Below, piece after piece: positions 10,486-34,693 of a DNA stretch of 64,000 bases (positions within the stretch are counted from its first letter, which is position 1; each line of letters begins with the position of its first letter). A model generated the notes under the pieces. It searched no databases and was not told the DNA's origin. It was given only the letters and a program-made list of their open reading frames with translations. The stretch lies in the NCBI GenBank assembly GCA_945906305.1, contig CAMDQT010000004.1:66117-130116 (forward strand), written 5' to 3'. Source of the stretch: Ferrithrix thermotolerans DSM 19514 (GTDB taxonomy: Bacteria > Actinomycetota > Acidimicrobiia > Acidimicrobiales > CAIXPF01). The translations under genes were made by a program, and so were the position numbers.

Positions 10486-12555
10486 TCAGGGCTGATCGGT
10501 GTCGGTGGTTGCGCCCAAGTGGCAGAAGGCGACGATCGCTTCGGTACGTGCGCCCTCGCCAAGCTGGCCGCGAGTCACGGCAATCGGATCGGGACGCAGC
10601 GCCTCGGAGGGTCGACGCGACTGGGTGGAAAAGGCACTTCCCGCCACGTTGAGACAGCCTTTGGCGGCGCCGAGATTCCACATGCCTTCGCGGTCCCCGG
10701 GGCCGTATCCCAACGACGGGAGATTGTGCATGTTCGGGTACATGGCCTCGTCGGTGTGGGCCACGTGGTCCAGGCCCATCATGTGGCCGAGTTCGTGAAG
10801 CAGCAAACCTTCCAGCCCGTTGGGGCCGGTTCCTTGGGTGAAGTTGAGCGTTTCGTTGATGTGAACGAACCCTTGGGCGACGTACGCGTCAGACCCGTTC
10901 CATGGCGTGTAGTAGGCGCCGCCACCAAGTCCTGCGATGCCGCTGATGGAGGGTGACTCTTCGGGGGACACGAAGGCAATGACCGCCTTGACTCCGGCTG
11001 GGGGTTGATGGTTGTGGCCGAGGTCGGTCTCGCCAAGGTCCACCAGGTCGATACCAGTGGCGGCTTCTACCTTGGCTATGGCACGGGCCACCTCGGTCCG
11101 GGCGAAGGACGGTGCGCCGCTGTAGTTGACCTTGTAAGTGAGTGTCGAACACGGATTCCAGCGGGCGAAGCTGCCGTCGCTCATGCGGTAGAGGAAGGCA
11201 TGCGGTCCATCCGAAGGTGGCCCAGTATCCTTGGGCATATAGCCGTCTCGAGGGGTCGCGGCCGTTCCGGTGAAATAGCCGTTGACGTCGATGAGGAGGT
11301 GGGCGCCGGTCAGCGTGTAGAAGGAAAGGCCGAGGCTCGACACGGGAACAAGAGCATGGTTGGGCACGGTCTGACCCGGTCGCACGGCGTTGAGGTTCGA
11401 TGCCAAGGGAAGATCGAGGCCGGCGGCGAAGAGGGTGAAGTAGCCGGCGGCGTTGGTGTCGGTCACGGTGGCGTTGGCCGCCACTGCGGACACCCCGGTG
11501 GAGGGTATGCCATGTCGACCGGCGGTGGTGACATCGAATGTGGTGTTCGCACCCGGTTTGATTCCCGGCCGAGGTGAGAGGTTCGGTAGGCGACTATCGA
11601 GCAGCCGCGCCGGGGTGAGCGGCACGAACAAACCTTCATCGGAGTCTGGGCTCGAGGGTCCGCTGTACCAGCCGTTCAGATCGACCACAACATGGGTTGC
11701 CATCGAGGCATAGATCGTCACCCACCCGTTGTGGAGCGGAACGATGGCCTGGTTGGTGATGGTCTGGCCAGCCACAGATACGTTCAGGTTGGACACCGTG
11801 CCGGGCGGGGTGCCTTTGGGGATGGCCGAGAGAAACCCTTGCCCCTGTGTTTGGGTGACGGTAAGGGTCAACACCGCCGCGGTGGCAGAGCGGGCGATGG
11901 TGCCGAGGCTGGCCACATCGATGTCGACCGTTCCTGCCGGAGCCAGGGCGCCGAAGCGCACGGCATTGGGGGCGCGGGTGTCGATGAGGCGGGTCGGGTT
12001 GAGGATCTGAAGCCGTCCGCTGGTGGACGTCGCGGCCGGGAGGTAATACCCGGCGATGTCGGCGACGAGGTGGGTGCGCGGGTAGGAAAAGAGGCGAACA
12101 CCGCCGGTGCCGAGGCCCACCGTGACGAGGTTGGCGACGGTCTGGCCGGGGTATTCAATGTTCAACGAACTGGTGTCGGGTAGCGCCGCCCCATCGGGGT
12201 AGGCGGTCACGAAGCCAACCGCCTCGGGTTCGGTGACGGTGATGTTCAATACCACCGCAGTGGCCTCGGCAGGAACGGAAGCGACTCCCCCGACGATAGG
12301 TAGCAGCATGCGTTCACGGGCCGCCGCTTTGCCTCGGTGGCCGCCGACGGCGGTGCGGGTATCGAGCACCCTGGTGGGGCTCATTGGTACGTACCTGCTC
12401 GTGGACTCCGCCGGAGCGCTGGCGCTGGCCTGTTCGGTCGCCCCCTGGGGAGCACTCATCACCTTGGCCGGCGGTGGAGCGGGGGCCGTGGCGGGCGATG
12501 GTCCGGTGAAGGACGTGAACATCACAGCGATAATGGCGACCAACCGAGCGAACAC
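10486..12555 (-). CDS. Secreted metzincin (matrixin-like) with three ~115-aa N-terminal repeats
   Basis: Signal-like N-terminus. Three repeats each begin P(T/A)R(V/L)(L/I)D(T/S)R and end (A/N)G(Y/W)(Y/F). C-terminal HELGHMMGLDH followed by a Met-turn (AMYP). GTG start. Confidence 0.75.
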   Translation of the reverse strand: MFARLVAIIAVMFTSFTGPSPATAPAPPPAKVMSAPQGATEQASASAPAESTSRYVPMSPTRVLDTRTAVGGHRGKAAARERMLLPIVGGVASVPAEATAVVLNITVTEPEAVGFVTAYPDGAALPDTSSLNIEYPGQTVANLVTVGLGTGGVRLFSYPRTHLVADIAGYYLPAATSTSGRLQILNPTRLIDTRAPNAVRFGALAPAGTVDIDVASLGTIARSATAAVLTLTVTQTQGQGFLSAIPKGTPPGTVSNLNVSVAGQTITNQAIVPLHNGWVTIYASMATHVVVDLNGWYSGPSSPDSDEGLFVPLTPARLLDSRLPNLSPRPGIKPGANTTFDVTTAGRHGIPSTGVSAVAANATVTDTNAAGYFTLFAAGLDLPLASNLNAVRPGQTVPNHALVPVSSLGLSFYTLTGAHLLIDVNGYFTGTAATPRDGYMPKDTGPPSDGPHAFLYRMSDGSFARWNPCSTLTYKVNYSGAPSFARTEVARAIAKVEAATGIDLVDLGETDLGHNHQPPAGVKAVIAFVSPEESPSISGIAGLGGGAYYTPWNGSDAYVAQGFVHINETLNFTQGTGPNGLEGLLLHELGHMMGLDHVAHTDEAMYPNMHNLPSLGYGPGDREGMWNLGAAKGCLNVAGSAFSTQSRRPSEALRPDPIAVTRGQLGEGARTEAIVAFCHLGATTDTDQP

Positions 12556-27270: not shown

Positions 27271-27333
27271 CGGGCCGACCTGGCTCACCCGGTGGCATGC
27301 CCGGGAGCCTGGTTCACCCCTACGATCACCGCC

Positions 27334-28551
27334 ATGATCGAACTGGAGTCGGCGCGGGCCAGGGTGCTGGAGGGTTGCGCGGCGCTGACCCCGGTACGGG
27401 TTGACCTCGCGGAGGCCTGTGGGCTGGTGCTTGCGGAGACTGTTGTGGCCGACCAGCTGTTGCCGCCGTTCGCGAACACTGCGGTCGACGGCTACGCCAT
27501 ACGCGCCGCTGACGCCGCCGGTGCCACCCACGGGTCCCCTGTCCGGCTGGCAGTGGTGGAGACCATCGCCGCCGGTGCCGCTTCGAGCCGGGTGCTGGGG
27601 GCCGGGGAGGCCATGCAGATCATGACTGGCGCGCCCATCCCTGCCGGTGCGGATGCGGTAGTCATGGTGGAAGACACCAACGCCGCCGGTCACGGTGAGC
27701 TGGTGGAGATCCGTCGATCGGTCCTCGCCGGTGATGCGGTGCGTCCCGCGGGCGACGATGTGCACCCGGGTGACCGGCTCTTTCTGCCCGGCGAGGTGCT
27801 TTCGCCGGCCCATGTCGGGGTGCTCGCCTCGTTGGGGCGCCTCGACGTGCTGGTCCACCCCCGGGTCCGAGTTGGGGTGATATCCACCGGCGATGAGCTG
27901 GTCGAGGGGCCGGTCCCACTCCAACCGGGTCAGATTCGCGACTCCAATCGGATCACGCTGCTGGCCCTGGTTGACGCGGCCGGAGCGACCGGAGTGGATC
28001 TCGGTCTTGTCCGCGACGACGAGGAGTTGATCCGGCAGGCGTTCGTGGCCGCGGCGGCGACGTGCGATGCCATCATCTCCTCCGGCGGGGTGAGCATGGG
28101 TGAGTTCGACTTCGTCAAGCGGGTGCTCGACGAGGTGGGCCAGATGAATTGGATGCAGGTCGCCATCCGTCCGGCCAAGCCGCTGGCCTTCGGCACCATC
28201 GACGGTACGCCGGTGTTTGGGTTGCCTGGCAACCCGGTGAGCTCGATGGTCAGCTTTGAGTTGTTCGCCCGACCCGGGTTACGGCGGCTTGCGGGCCACC
28301 ATGACGAGGAGTTGGTACGCAACTCGCTACGGGCAGTCACCGGCGAGCCCTTTCCTCGATCGCCCGACGGCAAGACCCATTTCGTGCGGGTGGTCGCGGC
28401 CAACGTCGAGGGCCGTTACGTGGTTCGCAGCGCAGGTGGCCAGGGATCGCATCAACTCGCGGTCATGGCCGCCGCCAATGCTCTGGTGGTTCTACCCGAC
28501 GGTGATGGTGTGCCTGCCGGCCACGAAGTTGCCTTACTGCTGCTGGGCTGA
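27334..28551 (+). CDS. moeA: Molybdopterin molybdenumtransferase
   Basis: MoeA N-domain (NTAVDGYA), MoCF_biosynth domain (ISSGGVSMGEFD) and LPGNPVS. Confidence 0.85.
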   Translation: MIELESARARVLEGCAALTPVRVDLAEACGLVLAETVVADQLLPPFANTAVDGYAIRAADAAGATHGSPVRLAVVETIAAGAASSRVLGAGEAMQIMTGAPIPAGADAVVMVEDTNAAGHGELVEIRRSVLAGDAVRPAGDDVHPGDRLFLPGEVLSPAHVGVLASLGRLDVLVHPRVRVGVISTGDELVEGPVPLQPGQIRDSNRITLLALVDAAGATGVDLGLVRDDEELIRQAFVAAAATCDAIISSGGVSMGEFDFVKRVLDEVGQMNWMQVAIRPAKPLAFGTIDGTPVFGLPGNPVSSMVSFELFARPGLRRLAGHHDEELVRNSLRAVTGEPFPRSPDGKTHFVRVVAANVEGRYVVRSAGGQGSHQLAVMAAANALVVLPDGDGVPAGHEVALLLLG

Positions 28552-28592
28552 GGACGGCACCGGTTTGCGCTACGCCTGAGCCGGGTTAATTC

Positions 28593-29597
28593 GTGGCCCG
28601 CTATCATCGTCTCATGGCGGCTCCGCTCATCGATTCCTTTGGCCGGGTCCACCGTGATTTACGGATCTCGGTGACGGATCGTTGCAACTTCCGCTGCACG
28701 TATTGCATGCCGGCGGAAGGTATGGCCTGGCTGCCGCGCAGCGAGGTGCTCACCTTCGAGGAGATCTACCGGGTGGCCCGGATCATGGTCGAGCGATTCG
28801 GGCTGGAATCCATCCGGCTGACCGGCGGCGAGCCCACGGTTCGAGCCCATCTACCTCGGCTGGTCGAGATGCTCGCCACACTCGGCGTCGATTTGGCCTT
28901 GACCACCAACGGCGCCACGCTGGCCATACTGGCCCCAGAGTTGGCTGCTGCAGGTTTGCGCCGGATCAACGTCTCGTGTGATTCGTTGCGGCCCGATCGT
29001 TTCGCGGAGATCACCAAGCGCGACAGCCTGCACAAGGTGCTCGAGGGCATCGACGCCGCGCTCGCGGCAGGCTTGAATCCGGTGAAGCTCAACGTGGTCG
29101 CCATGCGCGGGGTGAACGAGGACGAGTTGCTCGATTTCGCCGCTTTCGGCCGCGACAAGGGGGTCACGGTCCGCTACATCGAGTTCATGCCGCTTGACGC
29201 CCAGCAGGCCTGGACCAATGACCAGGTGCTGACCTACGACGAGATTCGTCGAACCATCAGCGATGCCTATCCAATCGAGCCCCTCGAGCGTGGTTCGGCG
29301 CCGGCGGAACGGTTCCGCTACCTCGACGGCAAGGGGGAGATCGGGATCATCGCTTCGGTGACTCAAAGCTTCTGCGAAAGCTGTGATCGGGTGCGTCTCA
29401 CGTCGGAAGGTTCCTTCCGGACCTGCCTGTTCGCCACCGAGGAGCAGGCCCTACGGCCGTTGTTGCGCGCCGGTGGTACCGACGACGAGATCGCTCAAGT
29501 GATAGCTCGCGCCGTTTCGGAGAAGTGGGCCGGCCATCGCATCAATGAGGTCCACTTCATCCGGCCCTCCAAGTCGATGAGCCAGATCGGCGGCTGA
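28593..29597 (+). CDS. moaA: GTP 3',8-cyclase (radical SAM)
   Basis: DRCNFRCTYCMP radical-SAM motif and conserved C-terminal Gly-Gly. The alternative ATG at 28614 is equally plausible. Confidence 0.9.
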   Translation: MARYHRLMAAPLIDSFGRVHRDLRISVTDRCNFRCTYCMPAEGMAWLPRSEVLTFEEIYRVARIMVERFGLESIRLTGGEPTVRAHLPRLVEMLATLGVDLALTTNGATLAILAPELAAAGLRRINVSCDSLRPDRFAEITKRDSLHKVLEGIDAALAAGLNPVKLNVVAMRGVNEDELLDFAAFGRDKGVTVRYIEFMPLDAQQAWTNDQVLTYDEIRRTISDAYPIEPLERGSAPAERFRYLDGKGEIGIIASVTQSFCESCDRVRLTSEGSFRTCLFATEEQALRPLLRAGGTDDEIAQVIARAVSEKWAGHRINEVHFIRPSKSMSQIGG

Positions 29598-29706
29598 TGT
29601 GAAGTTGCACGCGCTGAAAGGCCGCGAATCGCGTCGGGTGTCAGTCGGAGTTGCACCCGGATGCCAGGGAAGTTGCACCCACTGAAAAGGTTGCAGCCAC
29701 TGAAAG
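29598..29706 (-). repeat. Composite repeat copy A (inverted relative to B and C), degenerate
   Basis: On the plus strand: GAAGTTGCAC at 29601 and 29669, GGAGTTGCAC at 29647, AAGGTTGCAG at 29687. Three of the four cores are followed by NNN-CTGAAA (the 29647 core is not). Begins immediately after the moaA stop. Confidence 0.85.
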
Positions 29707-30185
29707 CGCTTGAGCGGCAGTCAGGTCATCGGCGCTCGGCGGGCTGAGCAGGCATGGTGCTGGCCCGGTCGACCTGAACGCCGGCCGCGCCGGAGCCTGT
29801 CGCCGCGGCCGTCAACTCCCCGCTGCGGCCGCGTGCTGGAGGCTTGTTGCCGGGCCGTTGGCGGCCCCGGCCGCTCTTGCGATGGTGGCTCGATCAACTT
29901 GCGATGGTGTCCCCATGAACGTGGAAACTGCGTCTCCGCGCGCCGGTCCGCGAGTGTCGACGGGGTGCAGGGCTCGCCACGATCCGCGTGGTGGGGGACA
30001 TGGTCGCTTCCGACCCGCCTGACCCGATCCCCGCCGTGAACTGCTCGCCCGCCCCGGACTCGACACGTCCACCCCGCTATGAGTGTCCGTGTCTCGCGGC
30101 GACTGGCACGCTCGCCCGGACTGTGTTGAGGACACCCCGACGGTGGCGGTGGACAAGATGGTCAGGTCAGGGCCTCGAGGCGCGG

Positions 30186-30258
30186 TTTCAGTGGGTGCAA
30201 CTTCCGGGCGACTGAAAGCTCGTGCAACTTCTCGGCCTTCAGTCGGTGCAACTTCACA
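30186..30258 (+). repeat. Composite repeat copy B
   Basis: GTGCAACTTC at 30195, 30222 and 30246 (spacing 27 and 24), interleaved with TTTCAG / CTGAAAG / CCTTCAG segments. Ends ...CTTCACA. Confidence 0.9.
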
Positions 30259-30320
30259 GCTGAATAGCTGGTCAGCCGCCCCGGAAGGCCCGCCGCGCTC
30301 CGTGACCGACGGTCGGGTCC

Positions 30321-30872
30321 TCAGCCGTGGACCTTCACACCGACGTAGTGCACGCCGAGCACGGTGCCCTTGGCGTCGACCATCGGCTCGTAAATCGTGT
30401 CGTACTTCTCGCCGAGGATGTCGACCACGCCGCTGAAGGCCTTGGCCTGCCGGATCTGAGCGATGACCGGTCCTGTGGGGTCGAGTTCCGTTCCGACCGC
30501 CCGCTTTCCGTCCTTCATCACGTTGGTGCTGACCCGCACGAAGGCCGAGCCCTGGGCGACGAAGAACGTGGCGGTGCAGCCGAACTCCCCGGCGACGGCG
30601 TCGACGAGGGTGAAGTCGTCGTTGACCTTCGTCGACCCGAACGACAGCACCGACCCGGACACACTCGGGGCCCCGAGCTTGGCGGCGTCGGCCTTGAGCT
30701 TCGCCATCGCTGCGCTCAACTGCTTCGCAGCAACAACAACCGTCGTCGTCGCCGACGCCGCGGCGGGCGTGGCGTCATCGCTGCCCCCACCACAGCCGGC
30801 GGACCCCACCGCCAGCACGGCGGCCACCGCGACGGCGCGGGCGATCGTGCGAGTACGAGCGTGTCCGGTCAT
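30321..30872 (-). CDS. Stand-alone Cache-domain (sCache_3_2-like) secreted/lipo-protein
   Basis: Signal peptide ending VGSAGC. VRVSTNVMKDGKRAVGTELD...GEKYDTIYEPMVDAKGTVLGVHYVGV matches the single-Cache sensor fold. SD GGGAGAG upstream. No output domain. Confidence 0.7.
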   Translation of the reverse strand: MTGHARTRTIARAVAVAAVLAVGSAGCGGGSDDATPAAASATTTVVVAAKQLSAAMAKLKADAAKLGAPSVSGSVLSFGSTKVNDDFTLVDAVAGEFGCTATFFVAQGSAFVRVSTNVMKDGKRAVGTELDPTGPVIAQIRQAKAFSGVVDILGEKYDTIYEPMVDAKGTVLGVHYVGVKVHG

Positions 30873-30938
30873 GAACTTCTCTCCCTGTCAGTCGCTCCCG
30901 GCCGTGACCGGCATGGGGGTCCTGGACGTTAGCCGCAA

Positions 30939-30966
30939 CGGCGACGGCGACGGCGACGGCGACGGC
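30939..30966. repeat. Hexanucleotide microsatellite (CGGCGA) x ~4.7
   Basis: Perfect tandem cggcga x4 plus cggc, starting 67 nt upstream of the Cache gene start. Confidence 0.9.
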
Positions 30967-31106
30967 TTGCACCCGGGTGGTGTCCGTTGGTTCCTCAGGA
31001 GGTGCCCGCTTCGGCCTTGAAGTGGGCCATGGCAAGGGTGATGAACACAGCGGCCATTGGCCGCAGAAGGCGTTACCCGGGCGGGCGCATCGGGTGGAGG
31101 TGACCC

Positions 31107-31304
31107 ATGAGGATCCTCGATCGCATCAGGTCACTGTTCGGGAACAAGCCCGGGTACGGCCGACCGGGTACCGGCCGGCTGATGTCTCTGGGCGGTGGCG
31201 AGGAGGCCGGGCGGCACGACGAGATCCGCGATGCGGCACGGACGCGTCAGTTCGGCCAGCCGTCGGACACGCTTGAGGACAGCGTCCGTCCGCCGTTGGG
31301 CTGA
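31107..31304 (+). CDS. Small hypothetical protein (65 aa)
   Basis: ATG preceded by GGAGGTG at a 4-nt spacing. My hand count gives about 82% GC at third codon positions against about 56% at second positions, which is coding-like. Amphipathic N-terminus MRILDRIRSLFG. Confidence 0.45.
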   Translation: MRILDRIRSLFGNKPGYGRPGTGRLMSLGGGEEAGRHDEIRDAARTRQFGQPSDTLEDSVRPPLG

Positions 31305-31365
31305 CCCCGCTGTGCGCCACACGACGGCGGCTCGGCCCGTCGCCGAAGCGACGACTACTCCGGCC

Positions 31366-31576
31366 GAGGCTGTTCGAGCAGAGCCGGGACGTCGAGCGGG
31401 GCCGCGCTCACGCCGAGACGTCGAAGCCGCTGCCAGCTCGTCCGGGTACCGTAGGCGATGGTCGAGACGCTCTGGATGACGACGAGGTTCATCAGCTGGC
31501 GGAAGACGATCTGCTGGAAGGACAGGACCCACACGGCCCGGCGGCGCTCCCCGTCAAGCCGCGTCGGAGCCCCGAT
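31366..31576 (-). pseudogene. C-terminal remnant of a GT2-family glycosyltransferase
   Basis: The minus frame reads ...AVWVLSFQQIVFRQLMNLVVIQSVSTIAYGTRTSWQRLRRLG...*. This resembles the conserved Q(F/I)VYRQLMY..VIQS....W..L.R.G tail of actinobacterial GT2 enzymes. An in-frame stop lies upstream at 31577-31579 and no N-terminal catalytic part is present. Confidence 0.45.
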
Positions 31577-31700
31577 TCAACCGACGTTTGTCCGCGGTTA
31601 CTCTGCCTGGCCGAGATCGCCACCGAGGACCCACGCCGCCGACATTGACCCAGACCACGGCAGCGACGGCACCACAACGCCTGGGCGGTCAGTGGGTCCG

Positions 31701-31773
31701 TTTCAGCGCGTGCAACTTCGGGGCCACTGAAGCTGAGTGCAACTTTTCGGCCTTCAGCGGGTGCAACTTCACA
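31701..31773 (+). repeat. Composite repeat copy C
   Basis: GTGCAACTTC at 31710 and 31761, GTGCAACTTT at 31737 (spacing 27 and 24). Collinear with copy B at roughly 85% identity. Ends 27 nt before the carboxyltransferase ATG. Confidence 0.9.
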
Positions 31774-31800
31774 GCTGATCCGAGCCGCTAGGTTCGCCGA

Positions 31801-33345
31801 ATGGCTCAGCCCGATTTGTCGACCGACCCCGCTCATTCGCAGCTTCCTCTCCGTCTGGAACAGCTGCTCGCCGCTAGGGCCGCCACCTTGGACGAGAACC
31901 GTCCCGCGGCGCTTGAGCGACAGCACGGCCGGGGTCGTTGGACGGCGCGAGAGCGGATCGGCGCGCTGTTGGACCCGGGAACGTTTCTGGAGTACGGCCA
32001 GCTCGCCGAGCCCAAGACCCGGGCGTTGGGGGAGGGTCCCGCCGACGGGTTGGTGATGGGGGTGGGCCTGGTAGACGGGCGAGCGGTGTGCGTGTTCACC
32101 TATGACTACACGGTGTTCGGGGGCAGCCAGAGCCCTCGTAACCATCGCAAGATGGACCGCATGCTGGCCCTGGCCGAACGCAACCGCTGGCCGGTGCTTT
32201 GCTGGTCGGAGGGGGGTGGTGCTCGAGCCACCGAACTCGATTACGACGGCGGTATGGTCACTACGTTCGTGCAGCTGGCCCGCATGTCTGGTCTCGTGCC
32301 CATCATCTGCCTTTTGTCGGGCCCCTCATTCGCGGGACAGGCCAACATCGCCGGTTGCGCCGATGTCGTGATCGCCACCCGGGCCTCGACCTTGGGTCTG
32401 TCCGGCCCGCCGTTGGTTCTCTCCGCCACTGGCGCGGCCGTCACCCCGCAAGACATTGGACCGATGGACCTGCATGAGCGCATCGGCACGGTGGACCTGC
32501 TCGTGGATGACGAGGAGCAGTTGCTGGCGACCGCCCGGGCGTATCTCGGTTACTTCGGGGGTCGGGTCCCGGCGGTGGATGCTCCCGGCGACGCCGATGC
32601 CCTACGGCGGATGGTGCCGGAAAACCCGCGCCGTGCCTATGACGTGCGACGCGTCGTGGCCGCCATTGCGGACGAAGGTGCGGTGTTGGAACTACGGCCG
32701 TTGTGGGGCCGGTGCCTGTCGACCTCGCTCGTGCGTATCGACGGCAGACCGCTTGGGGTCATCGCCAACAATCCGATGTTCGGCGCGGGTGCGATCGACC
32801 GTGACGGCGCCGACAAGTTCTCCCGGTTCGTCGAGTTGTGTAACGCCTATGACCTGCCGTTGCTGTTCCTGTGCGATACCCCGGGGTTCATGATTGGACG
32901 AGGGGCCGAGGAGACCGCTCTCGTCCGCCACAGCGCTCGCACCTTGATGGCGCTGGCCAACGCCGATGTGCCGCTGCTCACCATCGTGCTGCGCAAGGCC
33001 TACGGGCTGGGGTATTACGTGATGGGCTGCGACTGCTTCCAGCCGGAGCTCATTGTGGGTTGGCCGACGGCGGAATTCGGTGGAATGGGTCTCGAGGGCG
33101 CCGTCAATATCGTCTATCGAGATGAATTGGCCGCGGCCGTGGACGAGTCGGCTCGCAAGGAGTTGCGGGCGCGGCTGACCGAGGAAATGAAGGAGCGCAA
33201 CACGGGTCTCTCCTATGCCCGTGGTTTCGCGCTCGACGACATCATCGACCCTGCTGACACCAGGGAGGTGCTGATTAGGGCCCTAAACACCCTGCCTGCT
33301 CCGCCACCACGAACGAGCCGGAAACACCCCATCGATCCGTGGTGA
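31801..33345 (+). CDS. Acyl-CoA carboxylase carboxyltransferase (beta) subunit
   Basis: Two crotonase-like CT domains. ERQHGRGRWTARERI N-terminus typical of PccB/AccD5-like proteins. Confidence 0.85.
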   Translation: MAQPDLSTDPAHSQLPLRLEQLLAARAATLDENRPAALERQHGRGRWTARERIGALLDPGTFLEYGQLAEPKTRALGEGPADGLVMGVGLVDGRAVCVFTYDYTVFGGSQSPRNHRKMDRMLALAERNRWPVLCWSEGGGARATELDYDGGMVTTFVQLARMSGLVPIICLLSGPSFAGQANIAGCADVVIATRASTLGLSGPPLVLSATGAAVTPQDIGPMDLHERIGTVDLLVDDEEQLLATARAYLGYFGGRVPAVDAPGDADALRRMVPENPRRAYDVRRVVAAIADEGAVLELRPLWGRCLSTSLVRIDGRPLGVIANNPMFGAGAIDRDGADKFSRFVELCNAYDLPLLFLCDTPGFMIGRGAEETALVRHSARTLMALANADVPLLTIVLRKAYGLGYYVMGCDCFQPELIVGWPTAEFGGMGLEGAVNIVYRDELAAAVDESARKELRARLTEEMKERNTGLSYARGFALDDIIDPADTREVLIRALNTLPAPPPRTSRKHPIDPW

Positions 33346-33431: not shown

Positions 33432-33929
33432 ATGGCCGAACTGGGTTTCACCCACCTCGATCCGCTGGGGCGTGCCCGCATGGTGGATGTAACCCCGAAG
33501 GACCCGACCCACCGCCGAGCCGTGGCCAAGGGCCGGGTCTTCATGACCCCGGAGACGGCCTCACTCGTCGCTCGTGGGGCCGTGAGCAAAGGCGACGTGT
33601 TGGCCGTGGCGCGGGTGGCGGGAATCCAGGCCGCCAAGCGGGCATCGGATCTGATCCCGTTGTGTCATCCGCTGCTCATTGGTGGCGTGTTTGTGAACTT
33701 CCGCATCGAAGACGATCACGTCGAGATCGAGGCTCAAGTTGACACGGTGGATCGTACCGGGGTTGAGATGGAGGCCCTCACCGCGGTGGCGGTGGCGGCA
33801 CTGACGATCTACGACATGTGCAAGTCTGCCGATCGCACGATGCGTATCAGTGATATCGCGCTATGGGAGAAGTCTGGTGGTCGCTCCGGCACTTTCCGTC
33901 GTGAAATATCGCCCGATGATGCGCGATGA
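33432..33929 (+). CDS. moaC: Cyclic pyranopterin monophosphate synthase
   Basis: FTHLDPLGRARMVDVTPK, KGDVLAVARVAGIQAAK, LIPLCHPL and ALTIYDMCK motifs. Confidence 0.9.
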   Translation: MAELGFTHLDPLGRARMVDVTPKDPTHRRAVAKGRVFMTPETASLVARGAVSKGDVLAVARVAGIQAAKRASDLIPLCHPLLIGGVFVNFRIEDDHVEIEAQVDTVDRTGVEMEALTAVAVAALTIYDMCKSADRTMRISDIALWEKSGGRSGTFRREISPDDAR

Positions 33930-33980
33930 GGGCCATTTCCGACGTAATTGCCAACTTTTGCTGGCATTGACGTAACCTCT

Positions 33981-34045
33981 ACCACTAAGCAATGAAGGCA
34001 TCTTCCGTTAGTGGTTGCGACCATGGCATGTCGCAGTACCACTAA
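33981..34045 (+). promoter_or_regulatory. Candidate leader/attenuator RNA with mutually exclusive hairpins
   Basis: ACCACTAA (33981) / TTAGTGGT (34008) / ACCACTAA (34038). The middle arm can pair with either flank, and each alternative is extended by an inner 5-bp stem. Lies in an AT-rich 235-nt gap. Confidence 0.35.
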
Positions 34046-34096
34046 AACAACCACAACCCCGGGGCCGACCAACGCAATTCAGCACCGCCATTCGAC

Positions 34097-34116
34097 AAAA
34101 AAGGCAGCGCCTTTTC
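34097..34116 (+). terminator. Small terminator-like hairpin in the same leader
   Basis: AAAAGGC-agc-GCCTTTT with flanking A and T runs (bidirectional appearance), 50 nt upstream of the GTG at 34166. Confidence 0.4.
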
Positions 34117-34165
34117 ATTCGATAGGTAGTGATGGGACGGGTACCCGCCAAGGTAGGGATTACCG

Positions 34166-34693
34166 GTGAATTTCAGCACGCTTCTCGTTCTTGTGTTCCT
34201 AGTGGGAATGTGGGTGGCCCTTTTGGCTGGTCCTCTCCTGGCGCACAGAGGCTCGGGAGGTAGCCGGGGGAGAGACTCGATCAAGTCCTTCCAGCGGCAA
34301 CAATCGGTACTGGATCGCCAGCAAGGCATTGGCTCCCCAACGCTGCGTTCCTCGGCCTCTCTGGGCCGCGTGTCGGCCGCGCCTCGTCTGATGTCGAACC
34401 GCTCGGGCCAGGAGCGCTCTCGTATGGCTGCTCAGCGGCGCAAGATGATCGTGACGGTGCTGAGCGGGTCGACCCTCACCTTCTTGCTGTTGTCCTTCAT
34501 GAAGGGTGGCCCGTTCCTCATGCTGTGCATTGCGAGCGCAGCGCTGATGGTGAGCTATGTGGGCCTGATGATGTACCTGCTCGGGGCCAACGCCGAGCGC
34601 GAGATGAAGGTGGCCTTCCTGCCTCACCGCAACTCCGCGGCCGAGCCGAGCAGGCCCTTGAACCTGCGCGAAGCGTCTGCCGGACGGCGCTGA
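34166..34693 (+). CDS. Hypothetical membrane protein (3 predicted TM helices)
   Basis: N-terminal TM, a basic/Ser-rich linker (SIKSFQRQQSVL), then two C-terminal TM helices. GTG start. Confidence 0.6.
   Translation: MNFSTLLVLVFLVGMWVALLAGPLLAHRGSGGSRGRDSIKSFQRQQSVLDRQQGIGSPTLRSSASLGRVSAAPRLMSNRSGQERSRMAAQRRKMIVTVLSGSTLTFLLLSFMKGGPFLMLCIASAALMVSYVGLMMYLLGANAEREMKVAFLPHRNSAAEPSRPLNLREASAGRR

Follow-up and report, generated by a model that had tools for sequence, protein, structure and literature searches.

A single nucleotide after the moaA stop codon as a recurrent insertion point of gene-less, probably DDE-type transposon remains in Ferrithrix thermotolerans and relatives

The 64,000-nucleotide stretch of the Ferrithrix thermotolerans DSM 19514 genome considered here (contig CAMDQT010000004.1, hereafter the window) carries three clusters of short repeated units, termed A, B and C, between moaA and the following gene of a molybdenum cofactor (Moco) operon. 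The clusters are very probably the gene-less remains of a genuine mobile element, namely a DDE-type transposon of a family that inserts at one nucleotide after the moaA stop codon. They are asymmetric end arrays bounded by a 5-bp target-site duplication (TSD), the empty site is present in close relatives, and the same nucleotide, as judged from sequence comparisons, has been occupied repeatedly since the host lineages split. Read rightwards from moeA (27292-28551), the local order is moaA (28593-29597), cluster A, 472 bp of non-coding DNA and cluster B, followed by a Cache-domain lipoprotein gene, a 65-amino-acid open reading frame (ORF), a gene fragment, cluster C, a carboxyltransferase gene (CT) and moaC. 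The target gene and the parts of the element are as follows:

28593-29597, plus strand: moaA (GTP 3',8-cyclase), the target gene; Pfam Radical_SAM and Mob_synth_C
29593-29597, plus strand: GCTGA, the native target pentamer (end of a Gly codon plus the TGA stop) and left copy of the TSD; single copy in the empty site
29598-29709, plus strand: cluster A, a long-type element end; TGT tip 29598-29600, unit 1 29601-29618, variant unit 2 (GAATCGCGTC..TCAGT) 29626-29645, further units 29647-29656, 29669-29686 and 29687-29704
29710-30181, no strand: interior of the 661-bp mini-element, non-coding
30182-30258, minus strand: cluster B, a short-type end; units 30238-30255 (tip ACA 30256-30258), 30214-30231 and 30187-30204
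30259-30263, plus strand: GCTGA right of B, a duplicated pentamer
31698-31773, minus strand: cluster C, the second short-type end; units 31753-31770 (tip ACA 31771-31773), about 31729-31746, and 31702-31719
31774-31778, plus strand: GCTGA, the rightmost duplicated pentamer; the native 22-nt leader occupies 31779-31800, and CT starts at 31801

Cluster A starts with TGTGAAGTTGCACGCGCTGAAAGG at 29598, and the reverse complements of B (ending at 30258) and C (ending at 31773) start with TGTGAAGTTGCACCGACTGAAGG and TGTGAAGTTGCACCCGCTGAAGG, respectively. The tip TGTGAAGTTGCAC was confirmed in all three clusters, which are arrays of a unit of about 19 nt, GAAGTTGCAC-NNN-CTGAA(A), with intact TGT/ACA tips. 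When the window was searched with GAAGTTGCACNNNCTGAA, allowing up to three mismatches, 10 matches were obtained against 0.99 expected, a number reached by none of 100 shuffles; eight of the 10 lie inside the three clusters, and five to six of the units in the window are perfect. The tip sequence TGTGAAGTTGCAC, with up to two mismatches, gave 8 matches against 0.78 expected. The repeated-unit signal in the window is far beyond chance. The initial annotation, made from the sequence of the window, had described the three clusters as terminal inverted repeats with 5'-TG...CA-3' tips. All its sequence statements check out and the ends are indeed inverted, but they are not simple inverted repeats: each terminus consists of three to five units in inverted arrangement and follows one of two architectures.

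These architectures are seen in an alignment of all eight ends from the window and its relatives, read from the tip inwards. In the short architecture (window B, window C and the left ends of the related loci L028 and L018) the units lie at about positions 1, 27 and 54. In the long architecture (window A, the right end of L018 and the left end of L269) the second unit is a consistent variant, GAAWTCGCGKC…TCAGT, and about 17 extra nt precede the next unit; additional units are present in A. Complete elements pair one end of each type, as seen for A-B in the window and for L018, in which the left end is short and the right end long.

With regard to the flanks, the pentamer GCTGA occurs as a direct repeat outside all three ends, and its left copy contains the moaA stop codon directly after ...QIGG of the protein, which Pfam confirms as MoaA and whose nearest named homologues carry an Acidimicrobiia/Acidimicrobiales annotation. 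The initial annotation had read these pentamers as a TSD left by an insertion immediately 3' of an intact moaA, and the orthologous loci of relatives, obtained by exact-protein look-ups, bear it out on both points. In one genome, whose MoaA (P0002) is 91% identical to that of the window, CT begins 22 nt after moaA, which is the same distance as that between the GCTGA of cluster C and CT in the window. DNA of the empty site was available in four Logan contigs encoding the same CT protein. The three that were inspected (L330, L331 and L333) read …AAGTCGATGAGCCAGATCGGCG-GCTGA-CCCGAACCGCTAGGTTCGCCGG-ATGGCCCAG and contain one GCTGA only; in short form the junction is ...CAGATCGGCG-GCTGA-CCCGAACCGCTAGGTTCGCCGG-ATG, that is, moaA…GGCG-GCTGA-22 nt-ATG. 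The leader of the empty site matches the leader found 3' of cluster C in the window (GCTGA-TCCGAGCCGCTAGGTTCGCCGA-ATGGCTCAG). In more distant genomes, where moaA abuts moaC, the unoccupied moaA end reads GGCGGCTGA (L024 and L270) or GGCGGTTGA (L026) and is followed by unrelated sequence. On this evidence the left copy of GCTGA belongs to moaA itself, and those to the right of B and C arose by duplication. The segment from A to C is bounded by a true 5-bp TSD, and the insertion lies directly after an intact moaA.

The position of the arrays between genes inside an operon, together with the very good conservation of the units in the window, could also be taken to mean that they serve, or have always served, a host regulator of moaA, CT or moaC as binding sites, and that their transposon-like appearance is secondary. 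This we hold to be extremely improbable, as close relatives manage with the site empty, a proven TSD delimits the arrays and the interiors differ completely between hosts. Moreover, scans against Rfam and for promoters and terminators found nothing, so no promoter-like or Rfam feature accompanies the arrays.

The nucleotide that is occupied in the window is also occupied in four further lineages (L018-L023, L028, L271 and L269), in which …GGCGGCTGA is followed immediately by TGT…. At L018-L023 the insert measures 985 bp, and its right end, …GGTGCAACTTCGCA, is followed by GCTGA, the 22-nt leader and CT; the right tip of L018 has decayed to TGC. A clean three-unit end is present at L028, followed by genes for a helix-turn-helix (HTH) protein, an Abi_2 protein and a type I restriction R subunit, and the contig ends inside this island. 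At L271 the site is occupied and the end is partly degenerate, and the end at L269 is decayed, with about 30% mismatches. When the five inserts were compared all-against-all, only the ends were in common; the tblastx matches were high-GC noise. The last 27 nt of moaA (29571-29597, AAGTCGATGAGCCAGATCGGCGGCTGA) are invariant in an alignment of all five occupied genomes and make a plausible recognition sequence, although high-GC codon bias also contributes to this invariance.

As observations in their own right, the stretch 2138-6063 of L028 constitutes a defence island at the moaA site, and the decayed island of L269 carries a nested, frameshifted IS256-family (Transposase_mut) gene at about 11250-12470 and RCC1-like repeat coding sequence from about 13250.

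The degree of conservation of these ends was set against that of the genes beside them. At third codon positions the window shares only 63-68% identity with the other hosts, whereas the core positions of the terminal units show 88-100% conservation when the window is compared with L018, L028 and L271 (lower for the decayed end of L269), and over a length of 69 nt the left end of L028 and window B agree at 87%. As the unit cores are far better conserved than the synonymous sites of the flanking genes, the ends must be much younger than the divergence of the hosts. The L271, empty-site and L018 genomes, in which MoaA is 97-98% identical and moaA DNA 92-93%, show three different states, namely one insert, none and another insert. 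Three states within such a narrow range of identity indicate repeated site-specific insertion rather than one inherited relic. From these comparisons, related elements are judged to have been inserted independently at the same nucleotide after the host lineages had split.

The alternative to recurrent insertion is one ancient insertion that was inherited vertically and later altered by internal deletions, nested insertions and in-place inversion via the inverted tips. In that case slippage between the 5-bp repeats would have excised the element precisely and so produced the empty site, with no recurrent targeting or recent activity. Such a history would agree with the presence of all copies at one site, with the decay of several ends (the right tip of L018 and the mismatched end of L269) and with the nested IS256-type gene in L269; moreover, long inverted ends stimulate precise excision. 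We nevertheless regard it as quite unlikely. Besides the excess of end conservation over that of synonymous sites and the three site states within one clade, the perfect units of the window speak against it, and so does the observation that the ends of different hosts do not align past unit 1, whereas the 22-nt flank does. Also, the three ends and three copies of GCTGA in the window need at least two events.

Inside the window, A and B span 661 bp; A is the long end and B the short one, both tips are intact, and GCTGA flanks the unit on either side. GC content by codon position is 0.69/0.75/0.69 in the interior, as compared with 0.64/0.47/0.80 in moaA, i.e. without coding periodicity, and the interior gave no Pfam match and no Rfam match. 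A-B is a complete, intact-looking, non-autonomous mini-element. The initial annotation had called it a unit resembling a miniature inverted-repeat transposable element (MITE), which holds for its size, its non-coding interior, its terminal inverted repeats (TIRs), its TSD and its expected dependence on a transposase acting in trans. In contrast, MITEs occur as many dispersed copies and only one site was seen here, and the multi-unit ends of 75-110 nt are much longer than typical MITE TIRs. Since every copy found sits at one site, we are probably dealing with a site-specific element and not with a dispersed MITE family, as far as the part of the source genome covered by the window and the collections scanned can show.

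The span from A to C was given earlier as a 2176-bp composite. The length is correct, but three copies of GCTGA imply at least two insertion events at one site and not one composite. The similarity between B and C ends exactly after GCTGA, indicating two separate insertions into one target rather than a segmental duplication. C shares its CT-proximal junction, GCTGA and flank with the right end of L018, C being of the short type and the L018 right end of the long type, and is an orphan short end from a separate insertion at the same site. As the DNA between B and C holds the lipoprotein gene and a truncated glycosyltransferase tail, it appears to be leftover passenger DNA. This segment and the native genes to its right contain the following features:

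30264-31697, no strand: B-C segment, putative passenger or leftover DNA of an earlier insertion
30321-30872, minus strand: Cache-domain lipoprotein gene, inside the B-C segment
31107-31304, plus strand: 65-amino-acid ORF, inside the B-C segment
31355-31534, minus strand: truncated C-terminal tail of a polysaccharide-deacetylase/GT2 glycosyltransferase
31801-33345: carboxyltransferase (CT)
33432-33929: moaC

The fragment at 31355-31534 was considered as a possible transposase tail and rejected, as an exhaustive HMMER search and Pfam identified it as the C-terminus of a polysaccharide-deacetylase/GT2 glycosyltransferase; a word-indexed search with the same remnant returned only the self-match. 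A (GACGGC)n hexanucleotide run lies at 30933-30966, about 60 nt upstream of the start of the Cache lipoprotein gene and on the opposite strand from it.

With regard to orientation, the moaA-proximal end is long in the window and in L269, and short in L018, in L028 and probably in L271, where the end is degenerate. A 5-bp staggered cut made by a DDE transposase gives the same duplication either way, which would be impossible for a site-specific recombinase that works on a 5-nt core lacking symmetry. The finding of both orientations argues against the view that the locus is an island of the integrase type, comparable to the staphylococcal cassette chromosome (SCC) at the 3' end of rlmH. In such an island a tyrosine or serine recombinase would use GCTGA as the crossover core of attL and attR, the units would be recombinase or arm-type sites, and tandem accretion would have produced the three cores. 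SCC-type islands resemble the present locus in their site specificity at the 3' end of a housekeeping gene, in tandem accretion and in a direct repeat at every junction, and the defence cargo of one relative could be read in the same way. We still find an integrase origin very improbable. The direct repeat measures only 5 bp, the inverted multi-unit ends have TGT/ACA tips, and the moaA side is without a half-site resembling the element end. In addition, an asymmetric core permits one orientation and both occur, and no recombinase gene was found in any visible insert. IS200/IS605-type insertion was likewise rejected, in view of the true duplication of the pentamer and the inverted repeats at the ends, and TGT tips in place of GGGG led to the rejection of a Tn3-type origin.

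As to the enzyme class and the mechanism of target selection, we infer a cut-and-paste or replicative DDE-type transposon with asymmetric arrays of units of about 19-20 bp of the transposase-binding type. A transposase encoded elsewhere and acting in trans would bind the unit arrays, pair one long with one short end and cleave at the TGT/ACA tips. The tips would then be joined to the target, opened at GCTGA by cuts staggered by 5 bp, and the pentamer would thereby be duplicated. A probable sequence-specific selector would read the conserved 3' end of moaA and direct the transpososome to the stop codon, which would leave moaA undamaged. On this scheme the window would contain a non-autonomous mini-element (A-B), the orphan end of a separate insertion (C) and, between B and C, leftover passenger DNA.

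The anatomy best fits a Tn7-like transposon, although membership is unproven, and within the transposon explanation we put forward a Tn7-like element (TnsB/TnsC/TniQ-type) as a serious but tentative assignment. Tn7-like elements are united by arrays of subterminal inverted repeats of about 20 bp (PMC8649781). They make 5-bp TSDs and have essential TGT/ACA tips, and relic and multiple ends at attachment (att) sites, as well as diverse configurations among near-identical strains, have been documented for them (PMC11014353). Cargo of the kind seen in L028 (HTH, Abi_2 and type I R subunit) is typical of this group as well (PMC8649781). The element described here is thus comparable to Tn7, Tn6022, Tn5053/Tn402 and the CRISPR-associated transposons (CASTs) in its TGT...ACA tips, in having at least three subterminal repeats of about 20 bp with different left and right architectures, and in its 5-bp TSD. 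It also shares with them a fixed point just downstream of an undamaged conserved housekeeping gene, defence cargo in one relative, and an att site that may hold several ends and is configured differently in closely related strains. Four of the six features that define Tn7-like elements are accordingly present, namely tips, arrays, 5-bp duplication and a fixed attachment point. It differs from them in having no tnsA, tnsB, tnsC or tniQ gene near the ends, in occurring in both orientations, in inserting at the stop codon itself, and in a unit sequence for which the scanned collections gave no match.

An IS21- or Mu-like element, from the same transposase superfamily, seems doubtful within the transposon explanation. 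The ends of insertion sequences of the IS21 family consist of repeated units, end in CA and produce 5-bp duplications, IS21 has no strong target specificity, and its IstA transposase also accepts a pair of left ends or a pair of right ends (PMC10122671). The structural hallmark of IS21, that is, TIRs of at least two repeated units with a terminal CA and a duplication of 5 bp (4-8 bp), is seen here too, and the indifference to orientation is in line with it. One may therefore conceive of an IS21-family or Mu-like rather than Tn7-like element, with repeats of the L1/L2 type, an IstA-like transposase and an IstB-like ATPase, whose specificity would be a sequence or structure preference of the machinery itself with no TniQ/TnsD selector. 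We consider this unlikely. In contrast to IS21, the present family shows at least five insertions at a single nucleotide, three to five units per array with a clear long/short asymmetry, and several kilobases of cargo in at least one relative, which is unusual for an insertion sequence that normally carries only istAB; no istAB was found among the ORFs of the window.

Several findings weigh against the interpretation as a transposon family of this kind. No transposase, integrase or AAA+ transposition regulator was found among the forty ORFs of the window when compared with Pfam, those matching a family being housekeeping genes, and in this respect the initial annotation, which had seen no transposase, stands. 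No TniQ/TnsD gene was found there either, and none of these transposition genes turned up in those portions of the relatives' inserts that could be seen, or beside matching ends when representative genomes, contigs from metagenomes and viruses, and plasmids were scanned. Full-length elements with a transposase, for which the annotation had suggested a search, were accordingly not found in these collections. Two of the six Tn7-like features were not seen in the window and the visible inserts of relatives, namely the core genes tnsB (DDE/rve), tnsC (AAA+) and tniQ/tnsD (with or without tnsA), and a fixed orientation. The Tn7 TnsD pathway and Tn6022 insert in one orientation (PMC11014353), whereas the complete elements A-B and L018 lie in opposite orientations with the same duplication, admittedly in a small sample; in-place inversion by recombination between the identical tips of about 21 nt could possibly account for this. 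Furthermore, a tandem-insertion model predicts an inner element end immediately right of the GCTGA of B, and none abuts 30264 (30264-30320). Finally, neither the 64-kb window nor the loci of relatives (about 250 kb) nor the 185,579 representative genomes contained a copy at another site, so that transposition into varied targets is undocumented.

The searches behind these results covered several routes. An exact-terminus scan of the 185,579 representative genomes gave 15 matches, as compared with about 17 estimated by chance (18 specified bases, 596 Gb). The sole match in Acidimicrobiia was a lone perfect tip-like sequence, TTCAGGAGGTGCAACTTCACA, in Ca. Microthrix sp. UBA814 (L006 5069-5089), located where a DUF3670-SNF2 helicase ORF begins, with proS downstream; being without further units, it was judged to be due to chance. 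A three-unit gapped pattern used on metagenome and viral contigs proved over-permissive and yielded no genuine copies, its matches being periodic coding repeats. A degenerate-tip scan of viral contigs also gave none, the match in L289 being a chance match within an ORF, and BLAST of both ends against 72,556 plasmids gave no match. No family was found for the small ORFs abutting the ends. An approach from the CT side led to the empty site and to no full-length element, the P0125 hit lying at an unrelated locus. In the supplement of a Tn7 cargo survey, the unit sequence, moaA and Acidimicrobiia are all absent. The surveys of Tn7-like elements that were examined do not mention moaA as an att site, and a full-text search for Tn7-like together with moaA gave a single, unrelated paper.

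The operon around the insertion differs between relatives in further respects. CT stands between moaA and moaC only in the clade of the window, L018 and L331, whereas moaC directly follows moaA in the more distant relatives (L024, L026 and L270); the metagenome from which L269 came has its closest CT homologue at an unrelated locus (L334). A second presence/absence difference in the same operon is a TrkA_N/TrkA_C gene between moeA and moaA, which is found in L018 (8948-9946), L269 (8956-9954) and L024 (8950-9990) and is absent from the window (28551-28593), L026 and L270. Just past moaC, at 33750-34200, GC content drops to 0.52-0.55 from about 0.65-0.70 nearby, which may represent another foreign or intergenic patch.

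For the annotation of this genome, the 2.2 kb between moaA and CT are inserted DNA and not part of the native Moco operon. The moaA stop codon is a previously unreported chromosomal insertion hot spot, used by a mobile-element family of a little-studied actinobacterial class, and close relatives show all stages at it, i.e. the empty site, what looks like an intact mini-element, an island with cargo, and relics in decay. According to published work, the Tn7-like elements of Actinobacteria are experimentally uncharacterised, and one TnsB clade consists mostly of such elements (PMC8649781). It is conceivable, if speculative, that Acidimicrobiia harbour a transposon family for which the moaA stop codon is a dedicated single-nucleotide attachment site used in either orientation, with a selector uncoupled from polarity, unlike TnsD/TniQ of Tn7, and with 661-bp mini-elements that can still be mobilised in trans. 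Once a transposase is found, the ends (about 110 and 75 bp), the 5-bp target and a target context of about 50 bp would make a ready test system. Orientation-independent, nucleotide-precise targeting, if true, would be informative on how target selectors position transpososomes.

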